Below, in pieces: positions 16,334 through 45,559 of a stretch of 64,000 bases of DNA. This DNA is from Marsupella aquatica (Eukaryota; Plantae; Marchantiophyta). The stretch lies in contig OZ316894.1 of NCBI GenBank assembly GCA_973895155.1, positions 2,992,457-3,056,456 on the forward strand, read 5' to 3'. Numbering within the stretch: position 1 is the stretch's first letter; each line of letters opens with the position of its first letter. Made by a program: the position numbers and the translations under genes. A model generated the notes under the pieces. The model was not told the DNA's origin. It did not search any database and saw nothing but the letters and a program-made list of their open reading frames with translations.

Positions 16334-19300
16334 TCACACGTGTCGTAGTGCTGCCAATCTCTCTTCCAACTCATCAACTCCGGAACTGCAGTGTCGTACA
16401 GATACCATTCCAAGGAAAGCAAATTAGAGCAGCCAAGATACAATAATACAGTAGAAGGCTCATGCATATCAGACACACTGTAGATGTATCATATTGTATA
16501 AATTCCATAGATGCTCTGAAAGGCTCGGTGAGGTCTTAGATAGACGGTCAATCAAAACGACCAAACGACCAAAAGCTTGTTAAACACCAACGATACACAG
16601 GACGAAACGTATTTCTATGCCAAACGATAGACCAGGTCCTCATCCCCGGAAGTAACAAGTGCACCCCATCCTTGCTTCTGCAATGACTGACGCTATAGGT
16701 CCACGGACCTTTGGCCTGTGGACAAATAGAAAAGGTTCTTCTCCTGCAAGAGACCGACCCTCACATCCAAGTTCTCCTAGCATCACGAACTTGCTGATAG
16801 AATCTCTTACAATCTAAACTGAGGATCATCACACCAACTTAGTTGCATTTTGATATCTGTTCAGTGCAATATCCTTAAGGATTCTTTTCACTTCAACATA
16901 CTAAAGATCACGTAAAACTACTCAGTCATTCAATGCTCCTCTCGTACCTTCCTACATCTTGTGCCCTTGTCTTTCCTGCCACTTTCCCTCTAGGAGCCGC
17001 TGTCATCTGAGCAGCAATGTCAATGCCAATCTCATCCAGAACCTGGATAAACGTAAGGAAACGTGTACACAGATGTCAGCTGCTTATGGGATCGTTAATA
17101 CTACAAACATAATTAGCTTGGACGAATGATGCAAGATGGCATTTTACAAACTGATAGGACAAAATACACTCCACACTAGCGACGAAAAGCCTACCTGGTT
17201 TGTCAACTCGTCAGTTTCCTCCTCTGCATCATCATCGTCCAAAGCATCATCGATGGCATCGGACATCATCTCCGTCTGCGATGATCAACCATCAAGCAAC
17301 AGACCAAAATTAGAGCTGGTGTTGCCCGTCCCAATCTTGTTGAACAGACTTAGGGACGAACTGCAATGAACATCACTCGCGCGATTCATCCACTGAATTA
17401 GTTAATTGGCTGGGGAGGTTTGCGTACCGTCATGTCCATTTGAGCTGACTGCTTCTGGAACTCTTGCATCACCTTGGCCTGTTTTGCAGGCTCCATTTGC
17501 TGTTTGCATGACAGGTAAACACAAATATAATGTCAAAGCAACATACAGATTGCAATTTGTGTCTAAGAATGTTTGTATAATTGTGTATTTCATGCTTAAT
17601 TGAAATCAAGCTAGTGACGGCAGACAAGTGCAGAGCATCTCTACTATCATTAAGTTTACACCGGGAAAAAAAAACACTCGGTTCAAATAAGAGAACGGCA
17701 TATTGCAGCCTGAACATGATGTAAGCACCACCAGGACTGCGCTATGCAAGCTGAAATATACAGGATCACGATCATAGCATAAGTTGATATGGACATTGTC
17801 AACTGACCTTGTTCATCGCTGCCATAGCCGTGCTAGCTCCTTTCATAGCACCGGCGACCGCAGTATTGGCATACATAGCCTGCACTTGTCGGCGTCAAAA
17901 GGGTCAGCTTGGTTGTGACAAAACATACACTAGATACTAATGTCCGAGGGAGCTGGGCTATCGATAGGAACAACAAAGGTACCAAAATGAGATCCATCCA
18001 TGGACCGGACAAGTTTTCTATCGCTGAGTCCACAAGTCCCAATGATTTCGTTTGAGACCTCCCCTATAGAAGGAAAACCTTGAGGAAGGTGATAGAGAAC
18101 TGCTTCCGTCTATTCATGGTCGAACCTTTATGGACGTGCTAAACAACCAGTTGCAACGAAATACCTGAGTATGAGTGGCAACGCCACGCATTTGGGCGCG
18201 ACTACCCTGCAAATTAGCGATCTGCTGTCGGAGGCGAATGAGCTGCCTTGCAAGGATCTTTGTTGCTGCCTGCAAGAATTGCCAATTTCAGCAGCTTCAT
18301 AACAGCGTCCATCGACAACAACACATGCTTTCAGATGTGTTTCCGGTAAAATAATACCTATACACTTTCCTTTCATAGAGAAATAAAAAGGATCCTACTC
18401 ACGTAATTTCGGGAAAATCAGTGATTCAATAAAGACCCACACCTCATTTCCGGTCTTTGCTGTTTTCTTGATCTCGGCAACGAGTTTCTTTTCCTGTAGC
18501 AAAAGCAAGATTTTCGTAAAACTCAAGATACTATCCGTTGAACTTCAGACAGAAAACAAGTGCCATTCAGGGCTCAAATTGCTGTGAGAAAAAGCTATCT
18601 TGCTGTACTAGGACGCATTCCAACAAATTACCTAATGCGAACACACATATGATTAAGTGACCCGCTAAGTAAAATTACAACCGCAATTTCAAGTAATGCG
18701 ACGATTGAATTTATCGAAGATCGAGTGTGTGATCCACCAAAATATAATTGTGTGATCGCACTAAAATATCCAAAACCGTATCAAAAATAAGACGGCACCT
18801 AATCAAGTATGACGACCCCACTTCAACAAGGAATGGGCTTCACAGCTTACCTCCAGCTGAAGCGTCCCAATCTCTCGTTCGATGCCTGTAGCAACAAAAA
18901 TAACTAAACAGGTGAGATGCAATCTTTCAAGTTGGGCATCCGACAGCTCAAACGAAACGATGCAATGGAGGAGGCTACCAGAAAGGACGTCTCACGCAAT
19001 GGCACGTTAAGTATCAGGCAAAAGACTCAGAATTTCCCACAAGAAATTATTCAAACCAAATCCAGAAAGCGCCTGCATAACTATCTACCTTCTTGACCCC
19101 AAGGACAAGCAGATCATCCTTTGGAGGTTAACGTGCGGGAAAGAGGTTCTTTCATTATTTCTACTGTTGTACAACCTGCAGTTCATCCAAGCCCTAATTG
19201 TCAACAGAACACTACAAGATGTCCATTGTTTCTGTTCGGATAAATGCAAAAGTGAAACATTGCCCTACCTCGTGTGGCGACCGCCATCTCTCGCTTGCTA

Positions 19301-19781
19301 GTTCGCAGGGCATCTGCACGGCAACCAAATGAGGAATGACCCATGTCAAGGCGACAATAATTTCGATCTCCATACGCAAAATTAAATGAAGATCCGCAGA
19401 AGTAGTAACGGAAAAACCAACGGGAAAAGTGCTACGAAATTGTAAAAATGCGTTGATAGACAACTGAAAAGAACTCTGAACTATTTTCTAAAATAGTGAG
19501 CCCTCCCCACTATTAGATGTCGTGGGGGTGGGGGGCGCCCAACGAGGCACACAATCTACATGACAAGTTGAAGTGCTGCACTATAATCCCACCATCGACT
19601 GAAGCAGGGTTGTTTAGAGTCCAAAACAGGGCCAAGAGTTTAGAGTCCAAAAGACAAGGTTGAGCAATAAGTAGCAGTGCTTTTCTTAAGAGTGGGGAAT
19701 GGCAGGATGTGAGCGAATGGTCAAAAGCCACGAGGAGCGGCGCACACCTTTGGCATTTGTTTTCTTCTTGAACATGTTCAT
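16334..19781 (-). CDS. VPS2: ESCRT-III subunit VPS2 (CHMP2, plant VPS2.2/2.3-like, Snf7 family), ~213 aa, 10 coding exons
   Basis: Hand-assembled GT-AG exons: 19781-19748, 19313-19269, 18885-18851, 18493-18443, 18269-18165, 17879-17808, 17499-17428, 17275-17195, 17042-16948, 16385-16334. Translation MNMFKKKTNAKDALRTSKREMAVATRGIEREIGTLQLEEKKLVAEIKKTAKTGNEAATKILARQLIRLRQQIANLQGSRAQMRG...SGVDELEERLAALRHV*. Exon lengths sum to 642 nt, in frame. Confidence 0.95.
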
Positions 19782-21228
19782 CTTGTCACAGTTACAGGGC
19801 TCCGAATGAATACAGGCTCCGAATGAATACGGCTGTTTCTCTCCTCGTCGAGTCACAGACCAAGCCAACGATGTTTTCAAAGAAGGCCACAGGGGCAAGC
19901 CAGGCAATAAAGATTTTAATCTCGATCGTCTTCAAAAACGTACATTTCCCCAAGCAACGCTTTACTGACGAAATGCCGCCGCCGGTGACTACACCTCGCA
20001 CAAAATATCGACACTACAACGTAAAACCAGACGGTGTTCTCACAGCCGCCTTTTCCTTCGTCCTGGCAACACCACCACGACCTCCTATGCTGCCCGAAAC
20101 AGCTCCTAAAGGAACCGCTGCAGGCCAAATCCAATCCAATCCTCCCACTGCAATTTGAGAGAAAAGCCCTTCCTCCCTCGACCACGAGAAACCCTTCAAT
20201 CGAACCCCCCCTGCCCAGGAGACGGACTTTGACTCTTTCCAATTTTCCACTTTCTCGGCACAATTTCTTCTTCACCCAGGGGAGATCGACCGACCGATCA
20301 ACCAACCAATCGCACTCGACCGCCCCCACGGCACAACAGATAAAAAAACGTTCCTCTTCTTCACAATGCTCTTCTCCTTCGAAAGGACCTTTCTCCCATT
20401 CCCTGCCACTCAATCACTCAATCACTCAATCAAACCACGGCATCTCAGTCCGTCCAGAAAAATTCCGCCCACACTTCTCCGCCGAGGCTGCTTCGTTGCG
20501 GTACCTTCCTCGACACGGAACGCTTCCTCAGCGCTGTTCCGAGAAGCGAACGTTGGGACGAGACAGAACAAGTAGTGCTGCTGTTGAGAGAAGAGAAAGT
20601 TGTGATGGAGCGTCCATACATTCGAGCGAACGCGTCATTCGAACCTCCTCACCCTCCTCCACCTCCTCCTCGTGGGCGGTGGTGTTTGATGAGAACGATG
20701 CTCATTCACAGTCCGGTGAAATGTCTGCTCTCCTCGCCTCTCCTCGCCTCTCGTCAATGTGTGTGTCTCGGTGACTCCATCGCTCTTTCGCTTGAATTTC
20801 CGATGGCCAGTGACTAGTCTGGACAGGCGAACGTCTTTTCCCGTTTCCCACTCCCTCGCTACCTCCCTCAACGGGCCGAAAGGGTTGCTTTTAGATTTAT
20901 TTACGAGTAAGATAACACCCAAATCCCCGTGTCCTATATAGGAGCAAGATAACACCCACATATTTGTAGACTCCCCTGTTGTCCCATTCATAATGTACAT
21001 AGTACTACTAGGGCATCTCAAATATGGTTGTTTTTGGGAGATCTTTCGGGCTGCTCGCAAGGCACTCGGGTCACCCGCAACATGCTACTACCGGGCAAAT
21101 ATCTTGAAGGGTCACTGAAATATGAGACGGGTCACGGGTGAATATGCAACTGGGTTGCCCCCGTAACTGCGTCGTGGGTGCTCATGCAAGTTGGTTTCCG
21201 CTTAACTCCGGTTAACCATACATAGACA

Positions 21229-24245: not shown

Positions 24246-25765
24246 TTACTCCCTCACGCTGCATAGAAATCTTCCAAGGGCCCTATTAAATCGCAGGGCA
24301 ATATCCATGACTTGCACTAGCAAGGCATTTCCTACCTGTGATGTTGCTTGCCTTGATGCCCTGGGACGTCCTTCATAGTCGGATGGGTTAGCACCATCCA
24401 CCTCAACCTGGTCATCTACCTGGTCATCTTTCGTCCACTCATTGTTTTCACTAATGATATAATTGTGCAGTTTACAACAAAGGGTAATCCATCTCACATC
24501 CAAACTGAATTTCTTTTGATTTAGTTGCAGTCTTATCTCTTTCAGTGAATGCCACCGTGACTTCCGAACTCCAATACAATGTTCATTTGTAACTCGACAT
24601 TTTGCCATACAAGTGTTGAAGTCCTCTCTGTTGTTTGATATATCAGCCCGTTTGAAAGAACATACTAAATGGGGACAGGCCTGGTAGCCAGAGCACCCAA
24701 TAAATATTGCCCTTCCTGCAACAATATGTTTGGACCCACCTGGTTGTAGTAGTCCCACAAGGGGGACCTCCTGAGGCTAGTCAAGTCACCACATGATCCT
24801 GGCATTCCTGAATCATTCCAAACTTGAAGTTCAGTGGCTGGAAGAAATTCAAACACATAATTACAAGAGAAAATAAAGAAATAATTTTATGCAAAAAGGG
24901 ATCAAAGTACCTGTGAACATGAAAGTAATTCTTCGGTTGTGGTCACACACAACTTGTGTGTTAATGGAGTACCGGCTCTTCCTATCATAGTAGTATTCTC
25001 CATGTTCCTTTGGGCGTTGTGTGAGTGGCATGAGGGACCCATCAATGAGCCCTACACATCCTGGGAAGCCGTGTGCTGCAAAATGCAGCCGAAATGGCCA
25101 CTCTTTCAGTAGGCTCTGGCCAGGCAATTTGGTCACACAGCACAGCCTCTAAAGCCACAAAACACCGCTTGCTGAAGTTGACTAGGCTGCCACAACTAAC
25201 TCCCCAAGTTGGTATCAAATCGTTTATATAGGCCCCATTACCATCATGGCCAAGTCTGTCAAAACAGACAGCTAGCTGTGTAATGATGGGTGCCTGTCCA
25301 TAGTTTGATTGGGATTAAAAAATGGGATGAGATTCAATTTTGTCCCCCAGACCAAAGAATGTGCGCTTATCTATTTTGGTCAGCTGTCTGAAAAGTGTGG
25401 CAGGCAAGTTGTGGAAGTATTGGGTCACAAAATCAGCTGACTTAGTAGTCACTTGTCTTGGCACAAAAAACCTGGTGTTATAAAGCACAAAATACAATTC
25501 AAACATAGAAGCAGGAGTTTCTCCTTGAAATTCATGTGGATCATCTGAGATCTCTGAATCTTCACTACTAGAGTCCATAGGTAACTCAGTGTCTGATTCT
25601 GATAAAAGGGAGGCATTGCCCTGGTCCACCGCCGAGAGGTAGCCCACTGAAAGGTCAAGAGAATCTGCATCGGATGAGGAGTCTGAGGACTCCATAGCAA
25701 TGTTTAGTTGAAGTTGATGCCTGATTGCCCTCAACTGTTTTTGGCGCTCTAGAACACGAGGCATA
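24246..25765 (-). pseudogene. Harbinger (HARBI1-like, DDE_Tnp_4) transposase pseudogene; intron ~24910-24808
   Basis: Motifs GFPGCVGLIDGSL, YYDRKSRYSINTQVVCD, G|MPGSCGD, RVTNEHCIGVRKSRW, CCKLHN. The YLLG[D]SGY motif has a 1-nt deletion in the Asp codon (~24694). In-frame stop at 25315. Confidence 0.9.
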
Positions 25766-27810: not shown

Positions 27811-28797
27811 GGGACAATACAATATCCAGGGATCCAACAATGACCTTCCAAGAGGGAGAGAGGTTGAACTAGGGTTTAGACCCCACCAGTGCACCACATA
27901 TAAACGTACCTTCCATACCCCTTCCATGTGGGACAGGTCTTTCAATTGAAGTTTTCATACTATTTGCATAGTCAATGAATGACACATTTTCATTGTCATT
28001 GAATAACATCCTTCAGGCAATTGATTTTAGGGCCTCTAGTCAAATTTCCCTGCTCCACTCTCCCATACAATGCACCCCAGAGCTCTACCAAGCACTTAGG
28101 TTTGCTACTGGGTAACTTTTGGGTTTTTTGTTCCTAACTATTTGTTGGGGGGGGGGAAGGTTTGCCAGGTCCCCAGCATTGTTTTCATTGTTTTCTTTAT
28201 TGGCAAGAATTAGCCAAATTCCACCTCCCCAAAAAGCTTTTGCCCCACTTTTGGCAAAACTTTGCTTCTCTCATTAGCCAGTGTCCCACCTATTCACAGA
28301 CCCATTATCCAGAATCTATCCCACCTATTCACAGGCCCATTATCCAGAATCTAACGGTAATACTTAAATCTAGGGAGTTCTAAGGGTCAGGAAAATAGAA
28401 TATTTTGAGCATCTTTTCCTTCGCACACTAGACATTTGCCACTCTCGTGAAAAAGTAAAAACCTTTAAAAAGTACAACGCTGGTCCCCGGGCCTTTGGGT
28501 CTCTTTGGCAACCCCCCTTTTGATTGGGCCTTTTTGCCTGTTTGTTGGGAGCCTCTTGTTTTTTGAAAGTTACTTATATATATTTTTCCTCTGGGGCTAT
28601 GTAATTTATTTAGCGGAGATAAATGCGCTGTGAAGGCAGTGGAGAATAATTTCATCTCTGCCCGTGCATCCTTCGGAGATTTCGTCCCAAATGGCGTGGA
28701 ACAGAATGATATTCGAGAACAACAAAAGCTATGGCGGAAGTAAGAAAAGCCCTAATTCGAGAATCGTAAGAGCAGAAGGTCCCCTACGGTAGGCTCG

Positions 28798-29321
28798 ACC
28801 TGAAATTGTAGAGAAAGGAAATCCGAGGATGTTCAAATTGATGCGTACAAGGGACGTTGGTAGCAAATTCACCATCTCTCTATCGACCGGAAATTGTAAA
28901 GAAAGGAAATCTGAGGATGTTCAAATTGATGCGTACCAAGTAAGCTTATAGCAAATTCACCATCTCTCTACCGGACCGGAAATTGTAGAGAAAGGAAATC
29001 TGAGGATGTTCAAATTGTTGCGTACCAAGCAAGTTGGTAGCAAATTCACCGTCTGGACCGGAAATTGTAGAGAAAGGAAATCTGAGGATGTATTGATGCA
29101 CACCAAGTAAGTTTGTAGCAAATTATTCACCATCTCTCAACCGGACCGGAAACTGTACAGAAAGGAGATCTGAGGATGTTCAAATTGATGCGTACCAAGT
29201 AAGTTGGTAGTACATTCACCATCTCTCTACCGGAAAGGAAATTGAAGAGAAAGGAAATTTGAGGATGTTCAAATTGATGCGTACCAAGTAAGTTGGTAGC
29301 AAATTCACCATCTCTCTACCG
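28798..29321. repeat. Six-copy ~88-bp tandem minisatellite
   Basis: Unit ggaaattgtagagaaaggaaatctgaggatgttcaaattgatgcgtaccaagtaagttggtagcaaattcaccatctctctaccggacc. Units start at ~28802, 28890, 28979, 29061, 29149 and 29238. No unique spacers. Confidence 0.9.
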
Positions 29322-29858
29322 CTTAAGCAACTTGCCTAGTGATTCTAGACAGACGCAGTGGATACCTAATCAGGAAGTTATGATGTCCGCTCATCCACAA
29401 CTGCCGTTCTGTTCAGCGCTAACGCAGGCTCTTTGCGTGAAGGGGAGCTCATACCTCACACTGAACGCTAAGTAGTGATATTACTTGATTGCCAGCTTGA
29501 ATAGGGTTTCGTTAAGCGGTGCGCCTGCGATTCGGTTGGGATACTGAGGGGATCAGCTCATAAAAATTGGTTTCCTCCCCTGGTACTAGTAAGATCTGAA
29601 GGGGCTTTCTTTTTATTCATCACTGACAATTATAGAATGAGTGAATGGATCGTCAGTACATCCACATCTTCACATGTGCTCCGCATCTGAAACGGAGAAA
29701 CTCTGCAGACCAAAGCTCGGTAAGATCAAAGATGTATTGTCTACCTATTGCACCGAGGCCCATGAATTCAAGTTTTCTATAGCTCGTGTACTCTTCGTAA
29801 TCGCTTGTATGATGAGAAGCAAAGATGAGATAAAGTAATTAATTGCAAAGAACTGTCG

Positions 29859-31304
29859 TCAGAGCTTATTCAGAGTATCCGGTTGCTGTGGACTCAGTTC
29901 CCCCTCCCGTTTCCTCATCCGCTCCCTAACCTCTATATCCGTGAACGAAACCAATTTCTCCACATCTAAGCTCTCCTCCTTCAGCGTCCTAGCCCTGTAC
30001 CTACTTCCCCTGGTCTTCAAACTTTGCGGATTCTCAACAGCAGCTTTGATAAATTCACTCCATAGAGTGAAGCATTTTCTCGTAGTTTGATGCCCTTTGA
30101 GTACCAGCGCAAAACAATGTGGCATGGCTTCGAACTCGTCATACACAACAGTGACGCCCTGTCGCGCCGCGACCGTGGCTACGTACTTGCTTTCATCGCT
30201 TAACAGCTCCTCTCCTGTTACGATCCAAAGGGGCGGGCTGCCAGTCCAGTCTTTCGCAGCAATAGGTGACACCAGAGGATGGCAAAGCACAGCATCGTCC
30301 GCAAAGAGACTCTTCCTGGGAGGATTGGCCGGCCAGATGGAACAGGGAGGGTAGAAAGCGCCCGTAGGATGCATGCTGCGAGAGGGGAGATAATCATACC
30401 TCGCGTTAGCGTCGCATGAAGGGCTCGAGTGCGTGATGTCCATCCAAGGACTGTTTAGAGCCAGTCCTGCCGGAAGAGGAACTTCGCGCTCTGCGCCGTG
30501 CCATTGGATCTTAATGTTCATGCGGCGGAATTGCAGAAGCGTTTCGAGAAGCACTACAGAGAGATTGCCACCCGCGCTGTCGCCGGAGAAGACGATGTGC
30601 TGGGGTTGCACGGGCTTGTGGAAAGAGTCGGGAGGCGGGTAGAGCAGGTTGAAGTAGCAGACTAGAGCATCGAGGAGGGCGGCTGGAAAGGGATTTTGAG
30701 GAGCGAGGCGGTAGCGGACGGAGAGGCAGCGGCCATTTGTGAGCTTCGCAAGCTTAGAGGTGGTGGGACGATAGAAGGCCGGGTCGAGGAGGTAGTATGC
30801 TCCGCCGTGGAAGTAGAGAGTGGTTGTCGGGGCCGTCACTTCTTTCATGAGTTCTGCATACTTTTGTGCTTCTGAGATTTGAAGTTCGGGAGAGTTCTTC
30901 GTTGCTGCTTCCCGATAGCCTGTCCATTCAGCTTCAACCGGTTTCAGCTCGGGTTGTGTGTAACCTCCAGGTGCCTCGCCCGGCTCTTTCAACGCCTCGA
31001 TTGCTTGGAAGAGAGATTGCCGGATACTGTCCTCTTCTGGCACTGGCAAAGTAACTTTACTGATCCACATCTTGCCCTTGATGCCGGGATCACTTAAAGT
31101 GGACCTTTGAGCTTTAGAAACTGGTTGAGGACGAGGAGAAATGATAAACGAGCGTAGCATATTGACCGTGATCTCTGTTTTTAAATCCCACTGCTTGGCC
31201 GTCTCTGAGAGTCCTAACATATGGAACAGAGCAGTTTTCCCCAGGAGAGGCACTCTTGGCACGATGGCCTTCAGAATTCGTAATTGTTCGGAGACGCCAC
31301 CCAT
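29859..31304 (-). CDS. Intronless HSL-family alpha/beta hydrolase (lipase/esterase, Abhydrolase_3), ascomycete-like, 481 aa
   Basis: Intact ORF with YFHGGAY oxyanion hole, SVRYRLAPQNPFPAALLDAL, nucleophile GDSAGG, SPWMD, GEELLSDE and EAMPHCF. The N-terminal extension (WDLKTEITVNMLRS, DPGIKGKMWISK, VEAEWTGYR) and LLYPPPDSFH insert are what I recognise from filamentous-ascomycete members, not plant CXE/GID1 proteins. C-terminus is -NKL. Confidence 0.9.
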   Translation of the reverse strand: MGGVSEQLRILKAIVPRVPLLGKTALFHMLGLSETAKQWDLKTEITVNMLRSFIISPRPQPVSKAQRSTLSDPGIKGKMWISKVTLPVPEEDSIRQSLFQAIEALKEPGEAPGGYTQPELKPVEAEWTGYREAATKNSPELQISEAQKYAELMKEVTAPTTTLYFHGGAYYLLDPAFYRPTTSKLAKLTNGRCLSVRYRLAPQNPFPAALLDALVCYFNLLYPPPDSFHKPVQPQHIVFSGDSAGGNLSVVLLETLLQFRRMNIKIQWHGAEREVPLPAGLALNSPWMDITHSSPSCDANARYDYLPSRSMHPTGAFYPPCSIWPANPPRKSLFADDAVLCHPLVSPIAAKDWTGSPPLWIVTGEELLSDESKYVATVAARQGVTVVYDEFEAMPHCFALVLKGHQTTRKCFTLWSEFIKAAVENPQSLKTRGSRYRARTLKEESLDVEKLVSFTDIEVRERMRKREGELSPQQPDTLNKL

Positions 31305-32569
31305 TTTCGAGGAATTTTGGAGGCAAGCCCTTGACGATTGGAAAAGAAGAATACAGTAGTATGCAATGATCTACTCGGGTGATAGTCGAGTGCGTATGAG
31401 AACAGAGAACAGAACACAGCAATACGAAATGCTCTATGCGGCAATAGGCAGAGTGCGCGTATAGGAACAGAACACAGTAATACGATATTACCTAATTCGG
31501 CACAGAAATAGGCGATGATGGGAGCGAGAATCGAAGGTATCAACCTTGTGAGCCACAAGAAAAATATGGAAGAAACGTACCGCTTACCAACTGAACCATA
31601 CGGTGAGAGGCAGGAATCAAAGAGGAAGAATCAACGAGGATCTTGCGCGGTTGAGATGTGAGATCCACGTGGATGTCGTTGCAACGAAGCATGTGTGTGG
31701 GGCAGCCGCGAGCGGCTCACTTTCGCCGACGGGCATTTCATGCAAAGGCTGACAAAATGGCACTCTCACAACAACTCTCACCACGCTGACCCTGAGTTTG
31801 CACCTTTCGGAGACGGTCACGACCGAATTGGCAGATCGTCTAACGTAATCGCTCGACAGGCGAGATGATATGAGATTGTTGCCCAATATCTTATCCTCGT
31901 AGTATCACAGAACGCTGTCTTCCTTTGTCCACTGACACCTGTGACCCGATCGCTCAGACTAACGTATACACGGTACGACATCTAAGGGCCATTGCAGATG
32001 CATCATTACTGATGCCTCTCCACCGCCTACAAAGCGTGACGGACAATCACTCATCTTCCGCTAGCGTCCTCCGACCGACTGCTGCTCCAGCTCTCTCGAT
32101 CAATCCCGGAAGAGGATCCGTTCATAGGAGCTAGTACCTTTTAGGGTGGGATTGAAGCTGACAAAAGTGAGAAACGAACAAAATAAACAAGTAAACCAAA
32201 GAAAGAGTTCTTAATTGACACTGGTAAAAAGGAGCACACAAAGTCTGAACTCTCAATCCCTGCGCAGGCGTGATCATCATTACTTCAGCCGTGAATTGAT
32301 TTGGATGACCGCATATCCCCAATGGGAACAAGGGTCAGAGCCCAAGGCAGATATGTGTGCCAGAAAATGTGACCTTTACAAAGTGAGCATACTATTATTT
32401 AATGAGCTCCATACAAACGTTGCAGCAAAACGTGGATCGTACTTCGGTTCCAAGGGAAAAATATTGTAGGATTTTAATCACTACTGTAGTGATGGGCGGA
32501 TACAGCACTTCCCACCTCGAAGTTGCAGCATCTATCCACCGTTACTTCCAAACCAATCCTTTAAAGGAC

Positions 32570-35500
32570 TTAACATCTCTCAAACACCTTGTACAGATTC
32601 TCTAAGTGTGCCACCTGAAAAGAAATTGGCACATGAGGAGAATCAGCGGAGGATTAGTCAACCACAGTAGAACGTATCAACAGTCAGAAGAGAGATCGGA
32701 AGTATACCCTGACTATCGTGCCATCGTTGGCCATGTGTCGTGGAGGACGCAGAAACAATTTCATCGCCGGGAACAACACATGTTGAATCGTCCAGTCTCT
32801 CTGGGCCCAAGCCGTCGCGGCCTCAGCAAGAAGATCTGGATCTATGACCACATTCCTGGGGTATGCTGCTGAAATCTCACTCCCTCCGTCATTACGTGAC
32901 CCAGTACCGATTCCTGTAACAAGAACTATTGAGACTGACAAACTAAGTCGAACACAAATAGTTCGCAATTCGCTTTATGCCCTTCTCGAAAGCCTCTGAA
33001 ATGGAACCATTCAGAACCAAAACACGAAGGGTTCAACCTAACGACTACCAATAACAAGGAGACGTGTACGAAGCATTCAAGACCATCGCAGGGAAACACT
33101 CTGAAAAGCCAAACAAGGGCATTACTATGCGCAGACCGACAAAGTCATCAAACTGAAACCATCGCAGGAAAGCACTCTGAAAAGCCAAACATGGGCGTCA
33201 GTATGCGCAGACGATGTCCACTGTGGTCCTCAAGTTGGACCGTACCACTGTCGGTTGACGGCTTTGACATCTCCTGTGACTTCACTCCTTCATCGGATGG
33301 GTTTGGAAGCAACGGTGGATAGATGGCATAAAAATCAGCGAGAGCCGCTGCAAACGTCTCAAAACATTCCTTCTCTGACTCCCACTCTACCTGGATACAA
33401 CGAGCAACATCGTAAGCAGTTAGTTAAGTTATGCACCAGCTCTAATAACCCCAGGTCCAGCACCTCACTTGAATTATCTTAATAAACAATCGATAAATAG
33501 ACGTCAGACACAATTGAAAAACAACCCAAGGGTGGACCCCTTTTCATGAGCCAAGGAATGAAATTGTGAACAGAGCCATCAAACTGACCATCGGGTACGT
33601 TTTTGAAAAGCGCTTACATTATTCCCAACGTTCAACACAAAATCACAAATTCTGTCCATGTCCGGACTGTACTGGTCAAGGATGATCGGAATCGCGCATA
33701 AGTTGCCTTCCTTATCGATCTCCACCCCAAAGTATTCCTCTAACATCTCTGCTTTACCTTTGAGAAGATCTGAATTTAACTGCACAAGACCAGCCACATC
33801 AATATTTTATCTCCATCAGAACTCCCTTGATGGGTACATGGGACCATCAAGAGCCGTCACTCAACCAAAAGAAGTACAAAAGAAGGGGAAAGGGCACCTC
33901 AGCAATCTGATCCTTGGGTCCATCGCTCTCATCCCAACTGCCCTCTCTGTTTAGGGCCATAATGAACAGGTCCCTAATAGATGTCGGAGTACTCAGCTCA
34001 ACCGACTCAAAGTGAGCAAACCGGCGCAATACTTGCTGGTAGAGAAGCTCTTTACTGCACAAATGATGGAGTTGCAACCAAAATCTGCGTCAGATAGGTT
34101 CTGAGGCTGTCATTCGGTTAGATCCCCAGTGATGACATTGAGTTTCAGATCTCTGAACTCTAAATTCTAGAGGATTAGAGAGCCACATCTAAAACATCAG
34201 TGAAAGTGACTTTCATCATTCCATCACGAAACCCACTCAATCCATTGCATTCGGCTTCAATAGAGATGGCAGTCCTGTTCAAAAATTCCCGCAAACGATT
34301 GTGCGAGGTTAATGAAGAGAGGTCAGCAGAAGCATGCAATTTTGATAATGCAAGTCAATCTATGAAGCCATCCATCAGTATCCTGTCAATGTTTTTCGGA
34401 TACTTTTAAATATCCAACTATTAAAGTGGACAAAAGATCAGTGTGCTGGTGACGTCCAACGGTGGGGCCCCGGATCTTTATCTTAAGCTTATATTGGATC
34501 TGAACAATCTCAGGTTCCCTCTGTAATTGCATCTTTCCCCACGAAGTAGGACCAGCATCAGCACGAGAAACAAACTTGTTGTGGACGATAAGTCCAGGGT
34601 TTCTCTGGGCAAATAAGCTTCAAACTGAACTGTTCAGGCTGCGATATCTCACCTTAAGTCCACCACGTTCAGTAGATAGAGACCGGTCTTATATTGAGCC
34701 AAAGCCAAAGTTGCGTCCGCCATCCCCACATAGACACAATTCTTGACAATATCTGTCATTTCTGATCCGTCCACAACGCAAGGATGGCCAACAAGTATAA
34801 GGACATGATGTCATGAAGCAACTAGTGAAATTTGTAGTGCTCTTTTGCAACTGCTTTCTAAGAGGAAAAAAGTAACAATCGTTCTTGGCAAGTATAGAGA
34901 GACAGGAAAGGCTTGCGTCAGTACTTGACGACACACAAGACGAAATATCAACAACCTCATATATATATTTTTTACACAGAGACATGAATTTGGCTTCAAA
35001 CTAAGTCACGGCAGACTGGGAACCTGAATGGGTGTCTTGATCGACGTCAGCAAGGAGTTCTTGGACGCTAGTTAAGTCTGCACTCTCTTTGGGGTTGCGC
35101 CTTTGCCTGACCAACTTTCTGCCATTACCAAGACCAACATTTCAAGCTAATTTAGCACATACAGTAACTTCGTCAATGAGAACGTAAGTTATTGCCTACC
35201 CTTTTTGGGGGTCGACTTTCCTGGATTAAGATCGTATTCAGGAGAAATTCATAGATCCAAAGGAACGTGCTCCACACCCCGCCCCCCGTCCCCCCCACCA
35301 CCACGCACACACAGCCAAAACCCACCCCCACACACAACTATTGTACCACCAGCTTTCTCTCATTTCATTATGGGTAGTAAGTCCTTTGGATCATGTATAC
35401 CTGGTTACGGCTAGATCTTTCTTGTCGTTTGCTGGATCAGAAGTCTTGGTCTGCATATACGCATGAAGCCTCCCTGCTGGAATGAGTGCATCTGTACGGA

Positions 35501-38500
35501 CCAGCTTGTTGACAGGCACCTTCTTCGGAGGTCGTTGAGCTACCATACCATTTGAGTTTTAGTACTACTTCGAAAAACTGAGCCGTTCGATTCGTTACAC
35601 GAAGCAAATTGTCGGCCAACTCTAAACTGATTGAATCTTTGTATCTGGTTCTCACCAAGTGTAACAAGTGAGCTCTCCTCTTCATCCTTGCTGGCTGGAG
35701 TCGCTGCTGCTCCTGGGAGGAGTGTCTATCACAACAATCATCTCATAAAGCATTAACGACAACCTCCAACGCAGCTGTACTTTCCCCAAATTCTCTCCAG
35801 GCCATCCCATATATATTAATTGCATCTACGCGCATCTCATCGTTTTGAAGTCCTCAACTCTTCCATTTTCTCAGAGCAACGGGATGTACGGATCAAGTAA
35901 TAATAAACCACAAACTAGGTGCCCTCTTTTCAGGACGTGCAGCTGAATTATCTTAGGTTTGGAGAAAGAATATATCACGAATCATTCTAGACAAATAGAT
36001 CGGAACAAGTGCAAAGGACGTGAAGTGATGTCGAGCATCCTTACTTGGGTATAGAATGTTCTCGACGTATTCGACTGCATCAGTTGCCCTTCGACAGCCT
36101 TCTGTATGGTCTCCACCATACTCTCTTGATTGAGAAAACTGACCTGCCAGTTTAGAAAAAGCAACTTCGTTAGATGCACAACCCGCATTATCATAGTATT
36201 CGCAAAATAGCTTTCACAACACAAGCTAGTGATAAACAGTGTTTTTCACATCTGCTGCTACTCAGATCATGGTATTAATTTCGAAATAAGCACGCACCTC
36301 TCTTTTGGTGGGGTGAACATTGACATCCACATGTGATGGAGGCATAGCTATGGACAAATATAGGAATGGTTTGGATGCTTTAGGCAGTATCGTGGCATAT
36401 ACCACTTCGATTGCCTTTCTCAAGGTATTACATTCTACCAAACGATCTGCATATATCAATCATCAGCATCAGCTACATAACAACCTTTCAGTATGGTCAA
36501 ACGATGGTGAGACTATTTATAGCAATGTTATGAAAATTTTGAAGCTTGACAATATTCAAGAGGGGTCCGAGCAATGCCTTTCAATAAAAACTACTGTAAA
36601 CTTTCACCCATGAGAATGGACTAGTAAAATTAGCAGTTAGGACCACTGCAACTGAGAAAATTATTTAGAAGCAATCATGGGGGGTGACATGGTATTGCTT
36701 GTGACGTGATACCATTTATGAAGAGAACCATTGTCGTCTTTTTCGCACTGTAGTTGGCACTCGAGATCCAGCTCGTCAGTTGAAAAGTTGCACCCGACGA
36801 ACCATCATCAGAGACCGTCATGCGAATAAGCTCCCGAGCCACGTTTGGACCATAAACAGACCTTATGGCATTCAATGGCGAATCAGATGCTGCTGAGTGA
36901 ACGTCTGCCCTGTTTTCCCCATGCTACGGTAGATAAACAGAGAGATGAAGCATTAAGACAACGCTGCAGTTCTCTCCTGCTCAAACAAAACTCTCCTAGA
37001 TATCCATCATCTGCGAATTTTGGGGACCGAGCGGTACAAGATAGTTCCAACTTATTTGAAAATCCTTTCTACATTTGCGACTGACGTCTTCTGGATGGAA
37101 ATGGATGCCACAGACTATGTAAGCCACACTTCACAGCGAGAGAAAAATCCTTCCAGGCTTTTAAAAGGTCCACGGATCTCAATCAAAGACGGGAAGACCA
37201 AGGTATTGCAGTGAGAGCAAAGGATAAGAGATCAGCTCAGTAAAATTAAAGTAAATAAATTAACCTTTTTGCATGAAAATCTGGCTCCTATTTTGTGAAT
37301 TGCATATCGGCTGATCACATCCAGGATGCGACCGTACTCCTCGTTTGGGTTTTTAAATGCCTTTCTCCTTGCCACCACGTTGTAAAATAGATTCTCCACC
37401 TGAAAGAGATAGTCATCAAGCACCTCCGAAGTCAAGCTCCAATGAAGGTGCACCAAGCAAAGTTTGACATGCCATCGTAATAACTTGAACTCGGCTGCAG
37501 CTTCCATAAATATGTGAAACTACACACAAAATGAAAATTCATTGATTTGTGGTTACACAGGCATGAATAAATAGCTTGCACTAACCGTGACTAGTGTTCC
37601 TTTCAGTGCAGCACAAGGCCGTGGATTTCCCACCATAACCCCATCCTTATATGATGCCCTACAGCAATGAAACAACCGGATTGTGATACTCGTCTCGCAT
37701 CAGAGAATAAGCCTTTTCTCTGTAACAGAAGAACTTCCATCTCTCTTCAATATATGGGACCCCTATTGAATCTAAGTCCCATACAAGTGTCAGCTTGCAT
37801 CAGACACATGTCAAAGACAGTTCTTACTTGTAACCATGAGTTTTGCCTTCAGTCATCGTCGTCACGGATACGTGGGCAACGTAAGTCATGCTTGCAAGGG
37901 CCTCTCCCCTAAACCCCAGAGTATTGATGCTTTGTAGGTCTTCAAAGTCGCGAAGTTTTGAGGTTGTGTGCCTTTCGCAGAGGACAGGAAGGTCTTCGAG
38001 CTGCCATCCGAACCCCAGAACAAAGATTCAATCCACCGTTAGTAAGGTCTCACTTCACTGTCAGTTGGACTGGCGAGCTCATGATTGGAACATATGGAGG
38101 CAATGGATCTGCTGCTTCTAGCTAATAATGAATGATTGTTGCTAAGGCCAAGCCTCTTGTGGCAGCACTCTTGCCGTATTTCACCTGCCGTCCCCTTGTT
38201 TCAATTTCACTCGGTTTCACTGAGTAGCACAAATAATATTTCGTCAACGCGTATGGGCACAAGATGTTGTCTCTCTACACCCAAACGATATCAGGCGGGA
38301 CAGAAAAATAACAGAAGTCCACAATCTGTGAAGGGATCGAATAGGCATGATTTACGCCGGCGTAACGACCTCGACTTAATTATAAAATTGGCCGACAGTC
38401 ATGACAATACAAAGAATTACGAACAATAGAATGAATAATAGAAAACTACGCCGACTGATGAGCCCGAAGACGTTGAAAGGTTCTCAAATTGAAATCCAAT

Positions 38501-38908
38501 TGAATTGAATTAATTTCGGGGTTCAAATCAATTCAAAAAGAGGGAAGGGACAGAAAGTACTCGACAGCGACAGCTTGTCAAAAGAAAACCAAATTCAAGT
38601 GAACAGATATGATAGCACAAACGGACCCGAATTCCGTGTCCATTGTCGCTAATTTGGATGAGTTTAAGCCCGCCATCCTTCACAATCACGCTTACAGTTG
38701 TAGCGTCTGCGTCTAAACTGTTCTCGAGCAACTCTTTCAGAGCGGACGCTGGCCTCTGTATTACTTCCCCTGCTGCTATTCGGTTTACCACTGCTTGTTC
38801 CAAGCGACGGATGGGAGCTGGTTGCACAACGGGTGGAGGCAAATCCAGTTGTTCTCCAAGTGGTAATGGCAAATCCATGTCCGGCAAATCTTCACCCGTC
38901 TCCACCAT
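32570..38908 (-). CDS. MLH1: DNA mismatch repair protein MLH1 (MutL homolog 1), ~749 aa, 16 exons
   Basis: GT-AG exons: 38908-38627, 38000-37828, 37658-37586, 37399-37265, 36923-36713, 36446-36298, 36143-36045, 35725-35656, 35539-35401, 35118-35024, 34761-34653, 34054-33898, 33779-33618, 33390-33246, 32913-32708, 32614-32570 (2250 nt, in frame). Motifs [43 protein letters not shown] and terminal LYKVFERC*. Confidence 0.97.
33082..33212. repeat. ~55-bp direct duplication inside MLH1 intron 14
   Basis: accatcgcagg.aa.cactctgaaaagccaaaca.gggc..a.tatgcgcagac at ~33082 and ~33158. Confidence 0.75.
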
Positions 38909-40638
38909 TCCTAGGAGAGTAGTTTAGGACCAAATTAGGTTCTCCGTTTAGTTTAGCATTCAGAGAACTCCATCTCCACCGAGCAAAGAGAATTGCAGGA
39001 CCTCCCGAAATAACGACCGAATCAGTTTGCTGACGCCCTCTTCGTCTCGCACCACAATCTCAAAAGAAAACACCATCTGCAGCCTGCCTTGTACTAATTC
39101 GCGTAATTTGAGTTATAAAGGCCTAAACCCTAAACCTAGGATTCACTGACGGTCTGCATCGGAAAACCAAGATTGTTTTGCTGACGCGGTCTTCAGCTGG
39201 CAGCAACAACTCTAGGCGATGACACAATCTGCAGCCTACTGTTCTCATCTTAGGTAGAATTGAGGCATTTAGGGACGACAAGCACAGAGCCGACGGACCG
39301 GTGAGAGCATCCGCATCTTTCACACCGGCTTTTCAATTGCCAGTGAAAAGTCGAAACGGGGAGATTCAGCAGCGGAGTCGATCTCTTTGCGATGGAAACT
39401 CAGAGCTGGTCGCACTCTGCAGACTTTCATCTGCCGCAGCTGTTCAGAGGCTGAAACTCAGCTCAGCGCTCTGGAACAAAGGGAATCGAGCTTTCTCGTG
39501 GAAATCGAAATTAGAGATGACAGCTCAGGGAATGGAGAGCACGAATGCGGTTCTCCATCAACATTACTCTGTCTATTTCTTCACCCTTCCGGAGTACAGA
39601 ACGTTTCACCATAAGCGGACCAGCTCAAATTGACAAACTGATTTGAGATTCTGTTGAAAGCAAGGGCTGAAGAAACACTCCACATGTGTGATCGTTGCGC
39701 TTCAGCATTACGTACTCTGTTTTTCAAAACATTTTCCCGCCAAACTCGAGTTAATACACGACGTATTTTTGGGGGCAAACAAAAGCCAAATTAGATCATA
39801 CTAAAATTTTGAGCTATACGGCTTTTTACTAAGGTGTCCTCCAAATTGACCCAATTTAGTTACTCCTCCCCCAAACTAAATTATTTCTCAAGTGTCCCAC
39901 ACCCCCCCCCAATTTGTATATTGGGTTAAGTAAACCACAGGAGTTAACCTGAGGTTGGCCCTCATTGGTCTGATGCCACATGGCAAGGTGCTACTTGCGC
40001 GCTACCCTGGTCAAGAATACTCGGGCCGCTCCTCACCCCCTATTGCAAATTAGGGTCATTGGGCCCTTTTGGCTGACGATCACCCTGCTCCTGCCCAAAG
40101 CCTCCCAAGCCCTACAACTGCCCTGCGCAAACTCCCGTTTTCTCCCCAAAAAAGTTTGAGTGTTTACACATTTGCCCCTTACATAGGTGTAACTGTTTTT
40201 TACCTTCACGAGGGCAACGATTACTGCAAGAAAGAAGGGAAATAGCAAAGGGAAGAGGGTGCAAGGGAAGGTGTACGACCTCCCATTGCGGTCTGTCGAC
40301 CTCTTAAGCCTGGCGTCCCCATCCCCGGCAGCTCTATCCTGAATTTTATACATTCAAGTCTTCAATGTCCTGCAGCTTATTTTGAATGCGAGAGAGTTAG
40401 CGTTGTTGAGGCAGTCACCCATAGCACGTCAAGCAAGGGCCTGGACCAGGGCGGGTAGGACTGCTATCAAATTATCCCTTAGAATTGATAAGTATACTAA
40501 CTTGAAGACTTCCCCTAGCCCATTGGTAAGCACTTCCGCCTCCCAACCAGCAGGTTCGAGGCTCACGCAAAGTGAAATTATGCTCATTTGCATCTACAAT
40601 TGTTCCCTTTATTAAGGTACCAAAATAGAACAAAAAAA

Positions 40639-40666
40639 CCCTAAACCCTAAACCCTAAACCCTAAA
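40639..40666. repeat. Short interstitial plant telomeric repeat (CCCTAAA)4
   Basis: Four perfect CCCTAAA units. Confidence 0.85.
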
Positions 40667-43240
40667 CCAAATCCTCATGAGTGAGTACATAAATGTAGGG
40701 TTTTAGGTTTCACAGGCAATAGGGAAAAGGGATGTGGAGGCAAAGGGGCAATGTGGCTAGGCATATCACTCATTTGCAAACTCTAGTCCCCAAAGTACTC
40801 TTTCTTGTCTGGTCTCTTCTCTTTCCCTTTGTATTTGTTCACATATTTGTTTTGTCCATTTTTTTCATTTTATCGTGTATGGCATGGCATCCCGTCTCTG
40901 TGTAAAGGTTAGGGATAGTTTGTTACAGGTTAGAGGTGTTTTCTTATAGATAGGGGTTTGGCTTTAGCATAGGGTTCTATGATAATAGGGGGCCAGCCCC
41001 CCGATCTTCCAAATGGGGGGCAAAAATGTCAACCAAGGGGAGGGGGGTCCACCAAGAGAGCGTTATTTGAGTGATGATACAGATTACAAGAAGATACGGA
41101 GATTAGATACCAAGCCACAAATCTGGGTCCCACTTGAACTGTGGAATGAGTGGGAGGACCTCCGAGATTTGCTTGGACCAGACGCAACACACTCTACCAT
41201 TATGACATGGCTGCCCGATCGCGTGCGACCTACGGTTGAGGAGCTTTGAGCATGACGAGTAGCAAAGGCAACCCAAACTTGGCCCGAGGCAGTACTGGCA
41301 CCCACGGGTAGCGAGATCCAGGTCAGCCTTCACAACCACCTCAGGTGCGGACACTCTTCTATTTGCTGATTTAGTTATGGCTTCCATCATTGCATTGCAA
41401 GTGAGTCAAGATATATATTGTTTTCCATAAATTGTGTTCAAGCTTTAGGTCTCCTAGGTTATCATCTTCGATATGAAAATTGCATGAGGTAGTGTTTTCA
41501 TTGCATGTTTTCCCCTCTTCACCCAATTTATTAGCCAAACCAACACATTATGGTACAGACTTTCGTTGTAACCCACATGTGAAGTAAAATAACAAACCAA
41601 AAATGGATAAATTATGAACCCAAAAATTAGGATACACCTTTTAAACCCAGAATTAGGGCACACGTAACATACCTAATATTACCTAATATAATACCAAACA
41701 ATAAAATTTGGGTCGCAAAATTTGGGAAAGCATTACTAATACCCATTGGCACCCATTGTTTGTCCACAAATAGCCAACTCTATCGGGTGTCCCCACTTTC
41801 TATCCTTCATAAGCTGATCGCCCTGCCTTCAGGACATGACCATGGCCCAAGTAGCTAGCCCTCAAAACTCAGAGTCTGTCTGGGGGTCCGTATGCCCGTC
41901 CGTATGGTCCACCCTTGGCTTCGCCCTTCCCATGACCTAACTAGCTCCTAACTCCAATCTAAGTCCCTTGTATGCGCCACTAGCTCAATGCATCACCTTT
42001 GCTAGTGCAACACTTTCTTGTCCACAAGTTTCCTCATAGTTAGTCCCCTCCAAATGGCCGTCCCTGGGGGCTTGGACCATAGAGGATCTTGGCGTCAGAG
42101 TTAGTGCTGTCGAAGCTAAGTGGTAGTATGGTGAAGTTTTGTGACTCTTTTGTCACAATACCAAAGCAGCAAATTAGGGTAGATTATTATTGGGTCGTGT
42201 TTAGGGTTTGGGTTACCATAGAATTGTGTCGTCATACTCCCTAGAATAAAATTCTAATGTTTTCAATGTTTTTGCATCATCTATAATTTCCAAGAACATT
42301 ATCCAAGATGCAAGGGATTCACATGTCTTGGAGGATATTCTCTTGGAGGAGTAAATTGTTGAACGATATGCTTTGGATGCAGAAGATAAAAAAATTTATC
42401 AAGATGATGATCCAAATGCTCTCACGGCTTTAGGAGCAAACTTCACTATGAATGAGGGTATTGTCTAAGTATGAGTCTCTCCTTCCAACACTCTAGTATG
42501 CAAAGGTAATTCCATTATAATTAATACAAACAAATGGGAAAATGTCTGATTGCCAACTTTGTGGGGTTCTTTTACCAAGAACCATCAATTGTCCCTGACT
42601 CTCAACCTATATGACCTGCTTCCATTGGTGATCCTATTTAAGCTTTCTTTAGTTCTTGACTCTCATTCTACGGGACCTTTAGACACAAGTAATGTTTAGA
42701 GCACCACGTACCTCATCTTCCAACTACTATTGCATTTTTTGAGTGCTACCTGATGGTTACTTTTGTGGATAGGCTATTTGAGGACTCCGAGAGCTAAGCG
42801 AGTGACAAAATTGCATCAACTTTAGTCAATTCACATGGTTTTGGGGAGGTTGGTCATGCTTAGACTTTTGTTACAGGCGACAATGAGTTTGGGAGGTGTT
42901 CTTCTTTGATTATCCCTTAGTTGTATTCCCGGTTGTATTATTCCACCCGTTGTGTAGGCCTCACCTATACGTTCTTAGTTGTTGTTGCAACGCATCTTGG
43001 CTCCAAAAATATCATTCAAACTGTTTACAAAATTATTCTCTTACATGTCCCTACTGCAGTAGATTGGCATGACTTTCAAAATGGTCATGGGCGACCTCAC
43101 AATGGGTAGATAGTTGAAACAACAGTGATGTGTGGCAAGAGCTGAAGAATGAGATTGAGCAGAGGCAAGCAACTGAGATTGGTAAGTAATTGAATGTTAT
43201 AGGCCCTAAATGATTTTTTAGGGTACTCAAGGGTTATGCT

Positions 43241-43315
43241 TAGTGTAGTGTAGTGTAGTGTAGTGTAGTGTAGTGTAGTGTAGTGTAGTGTAGTGTAGTG
43301 TAGTGTAGTGTAGTG
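43241..43315. repeat. (TAGTG)15 pentanucleotide microsatellite
   Basis: Perfect repeat. It explains the HYTTL-repeat spurious ORFs. Confidence 0.95.
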
Positions 43316-45559
43316 TACATTTTGCTGAAGTTTCAACATTGAATCGGACTATAGGATTGAGATCATTGTGACACTCTATTATTGTTGTAAAGAAGTATGA
43401 AAAATCAGCCTGGACCTCTTTCAATGTTAGTGACAATCCTGACAGTGGGTGGATCAACCTCAATACATCACTAGGATCCTACCAAGTTAGATTGTAGGTC
43501 CCATACATTGCCATGTTCGATCAATGTGGCTTTCATTTTTTTAACTATTGCCATGTTTGACACATAAGAATTCACATCAATTACGACACACACTCATAGC
43601 AAAGATTGCATTGCCGCGAGCAAAGGTTCTCAGACTAAAACTATAGTCCTTCCAGCAGAAAATGCAGTACTACATTGTGACTTGCAACAATAGCAGCAAA
43701 GAGGTGACAAACTTGCAGCAAGCTAGAACATCCAAATTGCAGCCTGAACTCCAGCAAATAGGGCACAGACTTGTATCAGTAAATTGCAGCCCAAACTCCA
43801 ACAAAGGGACCAGATTCACCGCCAAAAATTGCAGCCACAACCCAAACTCTCAAACAATAGCACATTTGTAACTTCTTTGGTCAAGCTCAAGCTAAAGTAA
43901 CAGCAGAGCTTTAATGAACAATATGAGCCAAATTTTGCAAGAGAATTGTGAACAAAATCCAGCCAAATTGATCAGGAAAAATCAAGCACAAAAATGATCA
44001 GCATTAGATCAGAAATATGCAGCACCCGGGGCAACACCCTCTGGCGGCCTGATGAGGCAATAGAGGAGGCAAGCAGCAAGGTTGGGCAGTGAGGCAACAA
44101 GAGCTTTGCAGGGCTGGCTATGGCAGCCACCATGTCTTTGAAGTGGGGAGGCGAGCAGGGCTGCTCCTTTGCTTTGCAAGGACTGCTAGGGCTGGAGCCT
44201 GGGAGTGCTGCAGTGAGTGGGTAGGCAGGCCCTGCATAGGCCTGGTTGGCAGCCCGTGTGAGGGACGGGCTAGGCATGACACCCCTCCAGTCTGTCCCAT
44301 CTGGGGAGAGTGACCAGTACGCATGGGCAGAGCCTTAGAGGGTCTTTAAACCCCAAGTTTAACATTTTCTCTTCAATGTGACATTGGCCACCGTAGAGAA
44401 AAAACAAAAACCTGAAAGGCTACCTTGGTACATATTGAACCCGCTTAGTACAAAGATTGATGAGGGTGGAAATATTGCGAAATGTAGCTTTTTGGGGTAT
44501 TCTTTGTTTTTCCTTGATCATTACATCTGAATGAATTTAAGGAGAACTGTCACATGGTGACCCCATGGTTTTGCAAGAAACAGGATAATAAGACCCCCAA
44601 AAGTCATTCAGATGGAGGTGCAATTTGGTATACTTTTGCCACTAAAAAACCCTTCATCATTTTGTTTGTAGGATACTTATTATGTCAAGGATGCCAAAAA
44701 GGCTACCCATGGGACCATACCCATCTTCCCAAAAAATACAACACCATGGGACTAGATTTGAATAGTGGCACAAGAGTTTAAAGAATATATTTGACTTTCG
44801 AACAACACAATGGTGTGTTCAAAAAGCAATATCATGAATATTCAAGATGGAAGAGCTTTGATACATGTTCCTTGGCCAACTGTAGCTTTCAATCTTGTGC
44901 TTGTATTCAGAACCAAAGTTTTTGAATGTTAGTATCTTGGTTCAAATTGATACACTAGAGCCATCTTCAATACAAAATATCAATCAATCTATACACATTC
45001 AATTTGTTCTACTAAATTCATCATACAGTAGTGAAGGCGACTTCAAACTAGTAGTCCATATGTTGATGCATTATCTCTTTGTAACTCTAGAGATAAATTT
45101 ATTTATTTTAATTACTCTGATATGCATCATCATGCTTATAAATAGAATAAGGTACATTGGGGATAATCCATTCTAACTTTTCTTGACCACTAGAAGATTT
45201 AGCCATACTTTGAGCCATGCCAATCTTTTTAACATTCATTTCTTTGCTATCCAAGCCAAAGGACACCCCACCTTGAAGTTTCCCAAAAGACTTGAAGCCT
45301 TAAGATCTTATCAATCATCTAAAGAATTATCATTTAATCATTCCTTTGTTATATGACCAAGCAATGCACCACCTTTAAGTTCCCAAAGATATTTCAACCT
45401 TTTAAAGATCTATCACTCGTTCATTTGCTATTCGGGCTAAAAATTGTCTCCCCCCTAATTCTCACTTGTAGAAAATGAGAATTTAAAGAGAGACTACATT
45501 TGGTTAACAACTAAAAAAGGAGTGGAATGCATGAGTCCCTCTCATCTTTGTTTATAATG

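Follow-up and report, generated by a model that had tools for sequence, protein, structure and literature searches.

The window, the whole stretch of 64,000 nucleotides that was analysed, carries a fungal-type esterase gene directly downstream of the host gene MLH1. In a Pfam scan of the window's stop-to-stop frames of at least 75 codons, which covered 150 out of 179, plant MLH1 was identified to the right of the esterase, and the MLH1 stop lies 1.27 kb upstream of the esterase start, on the same strand. The initial annotation, made from the letters alone, had placed the gene between intron-rich plant genes. This description fits the right-hand side, but the left neighbour is an 89-bp tandem array and not a gene, with transposase remnants farther left. 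The features of the locus are the following:

28797..29321, no strand: 89-bp tandem array of 6 copies, whose end is the left boundary proposed in the initial annotation
29322..29858, minus strand: region downstream of the esterase, with AATAAA near 29617
29859..31304, minus strand: intronless HSL-family (Abhydrolase_3) esterase/lipase gene of fungal origin, an uninterrupted ORF of 481 codons (481 aa)
29862..29870, minus strand: C-terminal tripeptide NKL, at the place where most fungal homologues have SKL or AKL (peroxisomal signal)
30117..30119, minus strand: predicted catalytic His396 in EAMPH (motif from residue 392), conserved in 92/92 aligned homologues
30207..30209, minus strand: predicted catalytic acid Glu366, conserved in 92/92 aligned homologues
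30576..30578, minus strand: predicted nucleophile Ser243 in GDSAGG (motif from residue 241), conserved in 92/92 aligned homologues and aligned with the GDSAGG of solved HSL esterases
30801..30809, minus strand: oxyanion-hole motif HGG, residues 166–168, with H in 92/92 and each G in 91/92 aligned homologues
31305..32135, minus strand: region upstream of the esterase, from the MLH1 3' end to the ATG, presumed promoter and leader, with a composition resembling host gene 5' regions
32570..38908, minus strand: host MLH1, an intron-rich plant gene in 15 tblastn pieces (stop 32570–32572, start 38908), a neighbour common to Calypogeia fissa

The ORF matches the Pfam family Abhydrolase_3 (PF07859) with an E-value of 2.4e-36 and 125.9 bits, against a gathering score of 25, and is thereby assigned to the HSL family. 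It contains the complete HSL motif set (HGG166, S243, E366, and H396), which confirms the initial description of an intact, intronless gene with all HSL motifs. Glu366 aligns with a Glu of PDB entry 9vmr, and the same position is Gln in 9vmu; we infer from the alignment that Glu366 is the catalytic acid residue. The AlphaFold2 model of the protein (pLDDT 91, pTM 0.92) has an alpha/beta hydrolase fold with an N-terminal helical cap, and its top Foldseek matches are HSL esterases, with the bacterial ones scoring best. The bacterial HSL family IV esterases E40, EstD11, EstE5, and Est8 (PDB 4xvc, 7at0, 3fak, and 6y9k) share this fold, with TM-scores of 0.73–0.84 by target length, and the same GDSAG-type arrangement of the triad, but they are only 21–28% identical in sequence to the window protein, which is about 180 residues longer. 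A strongly hydrophobic stretch was not found in the protein (maximum 19-residue Kyte–Doolittle mean, 1.17).

By standard HSL chemistry, Ser243, activated by His396 and Glu366, would attack an ester carbonyl held in the HGG oxyanion hole, and the N-terminal helices would form the cap. The enzyme is predicted to cleave small or lipid esters; as the substrate we would guess at lipids or terpenoids esterified with acetyl or short acyl groups. The source labels of the homologues, “acetyl esterase/lipase” or “acetyl-hydrolase”, are automatic names. The yeast steryl acetyl hydrolase Say1 (PF10340) belongs to the same clan and matches weakly over the catalytic core. An identity as Say1/Mug180 was rejected: the window protein reaches 14.6 bits, below the cut-off of 21, over profile positions 126–240 of 374 only, and this cut-off was passed by one of the five proteins tested.

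A homologue search with the esterase protein gave 3884 matches, and the best 120 were examined, of which 31 carry an organism name and 89 do not. Among these 31, C. fissa comes first, with 81% identity, and the other 30 are ascomycetes, 29 of which we take to be Leotiomycetes. Marchantia, Riccia, mosses, and vascular plants are absent from the 31 named matches, and their MLH1 proteins are present in the same collection. The nearest non-plant sequence among the matches listed is 78.5% identical to the window esterase, and a search of 50% representatives revealed no closer relative, the best of the 150 matches listed there showing 71% identity over 164 aa. Matches in the ESM Atlas were to fungal clusters only. 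The Pezizomycotina PF07859 proteins named “lipase/esterase” or “acetyl-hydrolase”, such as those of Hyaloscypha bicolor (PMD55668.1), H. hepaticicola (PMD22957.1), and Claussenomyces sp. (KAI9738961.1), match over the full length with 60–66% identity and resemble the window esterase in their motifs, intronless structure, and length of about 480 aa. All eight fungal orthologues that were checked read through without a stop. In fungi the gene is flanked by PEX14 and HMG-CoA synthase, as identified by Pfam (seen in 12 and 9 of 57 loci, many of which are too short to include them), whereas the window gene lies beside plant MLH1 and lacks the canonical SKL or AKL end. A functional study of this Pezizomycotina family was not found in our literature search.

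Trees were calculated with FastTree (143 rows) and with IQ-TREE (40 rows, LG+G4 without a mixture model), the latter from a hand-picked set that comprised the window protein, 33 fetched proteins, and an outgroup of 6 distant loci. The window protein groups with the two C. fissa copies in a single clade, supported at 100/99 in the 40-row maximum likelihood tree, and the same clade is present in the FastTree tree. It sits within a 7-row clade together with four environmental sequences, P0002, P0122, P0123, and P0126 (100/99), and the 33-row Leotiomycete-type group has a support of just 85/91 in the 40-row tree. AU tests rejected a placement of the liverwort rows with the outgroup (p-AU 0.028) and a grouping of the window protein with three environmental neighbours that excludes Calypogeia (p-AU 0.020), although p-values of 0.02–0.03 are modest and come from LG+G4 without a mixture model. 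These placements indicate that the gene is fungal in origin and nested among Leotiomycete-type sequences, with environmental sequences as its nearest sisters; the Leotiomycete-like origin suspected at first sight thus withstood the protein search and the phylogeny. We give almost no credence to vertical inheritance of a plant gene, or to a transfer from plants to fungi. The best match is indeed a plant protein, that of C. fissa, but it is the only plant among the named matches, the family is widespread in ascomycetes with a conserved PEX14/HMG-CoA synthase neighbourhood, and the liverwort rows nest inside the fungal family.

The same trees bear on the donor. Hyaloscypha, to which the usual rhizoid symbiont of leafy liverworts belongs, was tried and rejected: a clade with the Hyaloscypha orthologues has a p-AU of 3.2e-5, and the identity to H. 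hepaticicola is 65%. The donor seems to be an unsequenced lineage and not Hyaloscypha. Claussenomyces is the sole named member of a wider 21-row group (90/97, not starred), and PMC7325659 places this genus in the Leotiales together with the Mniaeciaceae, which are liverwort parasites. Kin of the Leotiales/Mniaeciaceae as the donor is a lead and not a result.

The identity of the four sister sequences also matters for the breadth of the transfer. With the same fungal origin, the transfer might have been older and wider, so that some of the sisters are copies from other leafy liverworts in moss or peat samples, and the gene would be general in the Jungermanniales or Jungermanniopsida. The sister rows are environmental and may include liverwort copies; since the liverwort WD40 protein also has JGI and Logan records in its cluster, such collections can contain bryophyte or green-plant contigs, and P0126 joins the liverwort rows with a support of 90/33. 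This last support is not starred, however, and the four sequences keep fungal-type ends, with MDLSDP at the N-terminus in three and -AKL at the C-terminus in all four. We regard this wider transfer as unlikely, though worth keeping in mind.

The DNA around the ORF had initially been described as a fungal island of about 2.8 kb, with flanks unlike the intergenic DNA of the host and with the gene's own promoter and terminator. The compositional part of this description is correct in that the CpG observed/expected ratio (0.80 in the left flank and 1.10 in the right) exceeds the median for the whole stretch (0.57, from 181 segments of 700 nt), and that neither flank contains an A/T run of at least 6. 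The 5' ends of host genes reach equally high ratios, however (1.01–1.16 near ASR, MLH1, DUF1674, and WD40), and a third-order Markov score of fungal versus host DNA gave −0.005 and +0.011 per nt for the flanks, within the range of seven host controls (−0.012 to +0.028). The proposed edges show no target-site duplication or terminal repeat, the longest shared word being 7 nt, and the left edge coincides with the end of the array. In blastn and tblastn comparisons with 57 fetched fungal loci, the flanks gave chance-level matches only (E 0.64 and 0.77), which is a weak test as, even within the ORF, the closest of these loci reach only about 68% identity. The fungal neighbours PEX14, HMG-CoA synthase, and NDC80 left no trace in the window (tblastn, no match at E ≤ 1). 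The flanks resemble the host's DNA close to genes, a bounded island was not confirmed, and co-transfer of a promoter and terminator is unsupported by flank composition, Markov score, or the fungal-locus searches, weak as these tests are, and is neither shown nor needed.

The stretch is present in five sequencing runs from three studies. In X1, which is possibly the window's own source sample, a single contig (29270–35512) runs with zero differences from the array through the ORF into MLH1 exons, at a depth of 9.9; the MLH1 contigs that follow have depths of 11.7 and 14.2. In X5, from another study, the depth is 3.7–6.4 for the ORF pieces and 2.9–5.1 for the MLH1 pieces. An X2 contig (31368–32439) crosses the proposed right edge, and the upstream region 31305–32135 is bridged by one X1 contig and one X2 contig. 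To the left of 29322, an X3 contig continues into the tandem array for 31 letters and an X5 contig for 75, and X4 contains the ORF in a single piece with 20 differences. None of the listed contigs spans the whole 89-bp array, and for the join to the DNA beyond it the evidence is the assembly of the window. The esterase is physically joined to plant genes at host depth. With the ORF and MLH1 on shared contigs at this depth, and the stretch present in several runs of three studies, the chimera that the initial annotation had offered as an alternative is very unlikely. Ascomycetes are common in liverwort samples, and the left edge abuts an array that breaks the listed contigs, but a fungal contaminant joined in by the assembler would have to recur across these runs, with the right edge bridged in a second sample, and in the C. 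fissa assembly, where the gene lies on contigs of 20 and 34 Mb. We put its probability close to nil.

The neighbouring genes agree with the initial view of a bryophyte host. Both MLH1 and the WD40 gene at 60119 have their best match in C. fissa, the latter with 99% identity. Over 670 shared columns, MLH1 is 90% identical to that of C. fissa and 74% to that of Marchantia, values that are inflated by trimming of the columns to well-matching runs. The host is thus most likely a leafy liverwort that is a relative of Calypogeia but not the same as it. C. fissa has two lipases, CAM6089479.1 on a 34.3-Mb contig and CAM6095876.1 on a 20.2-Mb contig, one per chromosome copy and both deposited as unnamed protein products. 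Its MLH1 proteins, CAM6089478.1 and CAM6095875.1, have the adjoining accession numbers, on contigs of the same sizes. From this consecutive numbering, and not from DNA, we infer that the lipase adjoins MLH1 in C. fissa too, at the same locus; since this applies to both copies, the insertion would predate the split of the two lineages. The C. fissa lipases are 19% diverged from the window esterase and have a longer branch (0.17 versus 0.085). They are 3.8% apart from each other, and their MLH1 copies 0.4% in the compared columns.

The split between the window's liverwort lineage and Marchantia is about 400 million years old. The MLH1 distance between the window and Calypogeia (0.10–0.11) is about one-third of that between the window and Marchantia (0.33), and this ratio, set against the deeper split, gives a crude age for the transfer of about 100–150 million years or more. 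The gene seems to have been maintained since. Among its close relatives, 16 of the 20 listed variants of the ORF are synonymous and 4 are non-synonymous (pN/pS 0.077, binomial p 1.5e-7; one of the 20 depends on a lone contig of depth 6.4), and no indel or stop was found among them. This excess of synonymous change, without stop or indel, indicates that the gene is kept under purifying selection.

These results leave very little probability for the initial proposal of a recent transfer at the DNA level, with the fungal promoter and terminator included. The right flank is CpG-rich, as described above, and the ORF is intronless and GC-rich (0.53). The intronless state is uninformative, however, as the fungal orthologues share it, and GC3 does not separate host from donor (0.573 for the lipase, 0.495–0.573 for four host genes, and 0.485–0.635 for eight fungal loci). 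Moreover, C. fissa has the gene apparently at the same place beside MLH1, the nearest non-plant sequence among the matches listed is far from identical, the flank composition lies inside the host range, and the fungal neighbours are missing from the window. A recent, species-specific island is contradicted by the shared locus. It is also highly improbable that the two liverwort lineages received the gene separately, each from one of two related fungi. Mosses have acquired fungal NAS genes repeatedly (PMC12454661 reports independent events), and the lipase distance between the window and C. fissa is about twofold that of MLH1 (0.22 versus 0.11), but both copies lie beside MLH1, in C. fissa by accession numbers, and the liverwort rows are monophyletic, with the tested split arrangement rejected.

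The C-termini differ between the fungal and liverwort proteins. Within the best 120 of 3884 matches, 101 of the 119 non-plant sequences end in [SA][KR]L. The last three residues are NKL in the window protein and HKS in the two C. fissa copies, outside the canonical PTS1 pattern [SA][KR][LM] (consensus as given in PMC9542071). Among the plant PTS1 residues reported as validated in PMC3487989, N is absent at −3 and S at −1; according to the same paper, x[KR]L tripeptides can act as weak plant PTS1. NKL fits this weak pattern, and the window protein may still be peroxisomal. We rate the chances as even or slightly better that a formerly peroxisomal fungal enzyme is now cytosolic in Calypogeia and probably in the window species, as the terminal residues suggest. 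The signal drifts in fungi as well, which calls for caution with the liverwort C-termini: among the 28 fetched loci, only 13 have [SA][KR]L at the C-terminus; all 11 that were examined at ≥61% identity belong to these, and the more distant loci mostly end otherwise.

Taken together, we consider it likely that the locus behind MLH1 holds an intact fungal-type serine esterase that was captured once from a Leotiomycete fungus before the split from Calypogeia and kept by purifying selection, and that the product is a predicted ester hydrolase, probably cytosolic. The capture would have been a DNA-level insertion behind MLH1; an RNA step is not needed, since the fungal orthologues are intronless too. 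The fungal ancestor would have been a peroxisomal matrix enzyme, and the liverwort copies would have lost or weakened its signal. A more specific scenario is speculative, and we think it rather improbable: leafy liverworts would have acquired a housekeeping esterase of peroxisomes from a fungus of the Leotiales (Mniaecia type), unsequenced and parasitic on liverworts, and dropped the targeting signal independently in two lineages, so that the enzyme moved to the cytosol and is now used on the plants' own acetylated terpenoids or against fungal esters. If true, a captured enzyme could here be followed through a change of both compartment and job.

Transfer of genes from fungi to bryophytes is already established and frequent, and the esterase is one more case. 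PMC12513842 reports 1,809 transferred gene families and several fungal genes in liverworts; counting every donor, a bryophyte species has on average 229 transferred genes. RDS1, YANB, EUPF, and the fruit-body lectin FBT (PMC12513842), and the moss NAS gene (PMC12454661), are described as fungal genes that likewise became fixed in a bryophyte lineage, are intron-poor, and have true plant genes around them; the esterase belongs to a different gene family. The words “lipase”, “hydrolase”, and “Calypogeia” do not occur in the main text of PMC12513842, and its Supplementary Data 8–11 with the HGT lists may contain the family. Our literature search, with most subscription papers outside its scope, found no paper on the liverwort esterase gene. 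The case is useful in that it is datable by a shared locus, marks a clade of leafy liverworts, and directs attention to a donor lineage that has no named genome. In addition, the three natural C-termini, AKL, NKL, and HKS, provide a simple test of organelle targeting after transfer.

The two lipase copies of the liverwort Calypogeia fissa (P0001 and P0121) are 3.8% different, compared with 0.4% in the compared columns of its two MLH1 copies and no difference between its WD40 copies. This contrast at the sequence level suggests that the captured gene may be changing faster in C. fissa, through relaxed or positive selection. In position, 21 kb separate MLH1 from the WD40 (DCAF7/LWD-type) gene in the window (38908–60119), whereas their accession numbers in C. 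fissa lie ~640–760 apart. Read from this numbering, the MLH1–WD40 interval would have been rearranged in one of the two lineages. Both C. fissa genes seem to lie on the same chromosome.

Among fungi, the gene order NDC80, PEX14, lipase, and HMG-CoA synthase is conserved, as at the fetched loci L002, L012, and L045. A Cudoniella homologue (P0088) is a gene model in which PEX14 and the lipase are fused, probably an annotation join. In the window, the 5′ leader of the lipase possibly contains an intron: upstream of the start (31340–31620, minus strand), GT donor-like sites precede a tract rich in pyrimidines, in which GTGTTCTGTTC-like words recur.

Three further host genes were identified by their Pfam domains:

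8984–9454, minus strand: ASR gene, His-rich ABA/WDS-induced protein (PF02496)
52064–52531, minus strand: DUF1674 gene, which we take to be SDHAF4-type
56074–56322, plus strand: ribosomal L29e gene

Within 15000–20800, no frame of at least 75 codons gave a Pfam match; a CpG-rich segment at 19950–20650 resembles the 5′ end of a gene.

Transposon remnants and simple repeats are also present:

24249–25148, minus strand: broken DDE_Tnp_4 transposase remnants (Pfam), presumably PIF/Harbinger-type
40636–40668: AAACCCT, 4.7 copies, a plant telomere-type motif in a chromosome-internal position
43241–43317: (TAGTG)15, a run without imperfection

The DDE_Tnp_4 remnants lie in a stretch that is multicopy in the sequencing runs.
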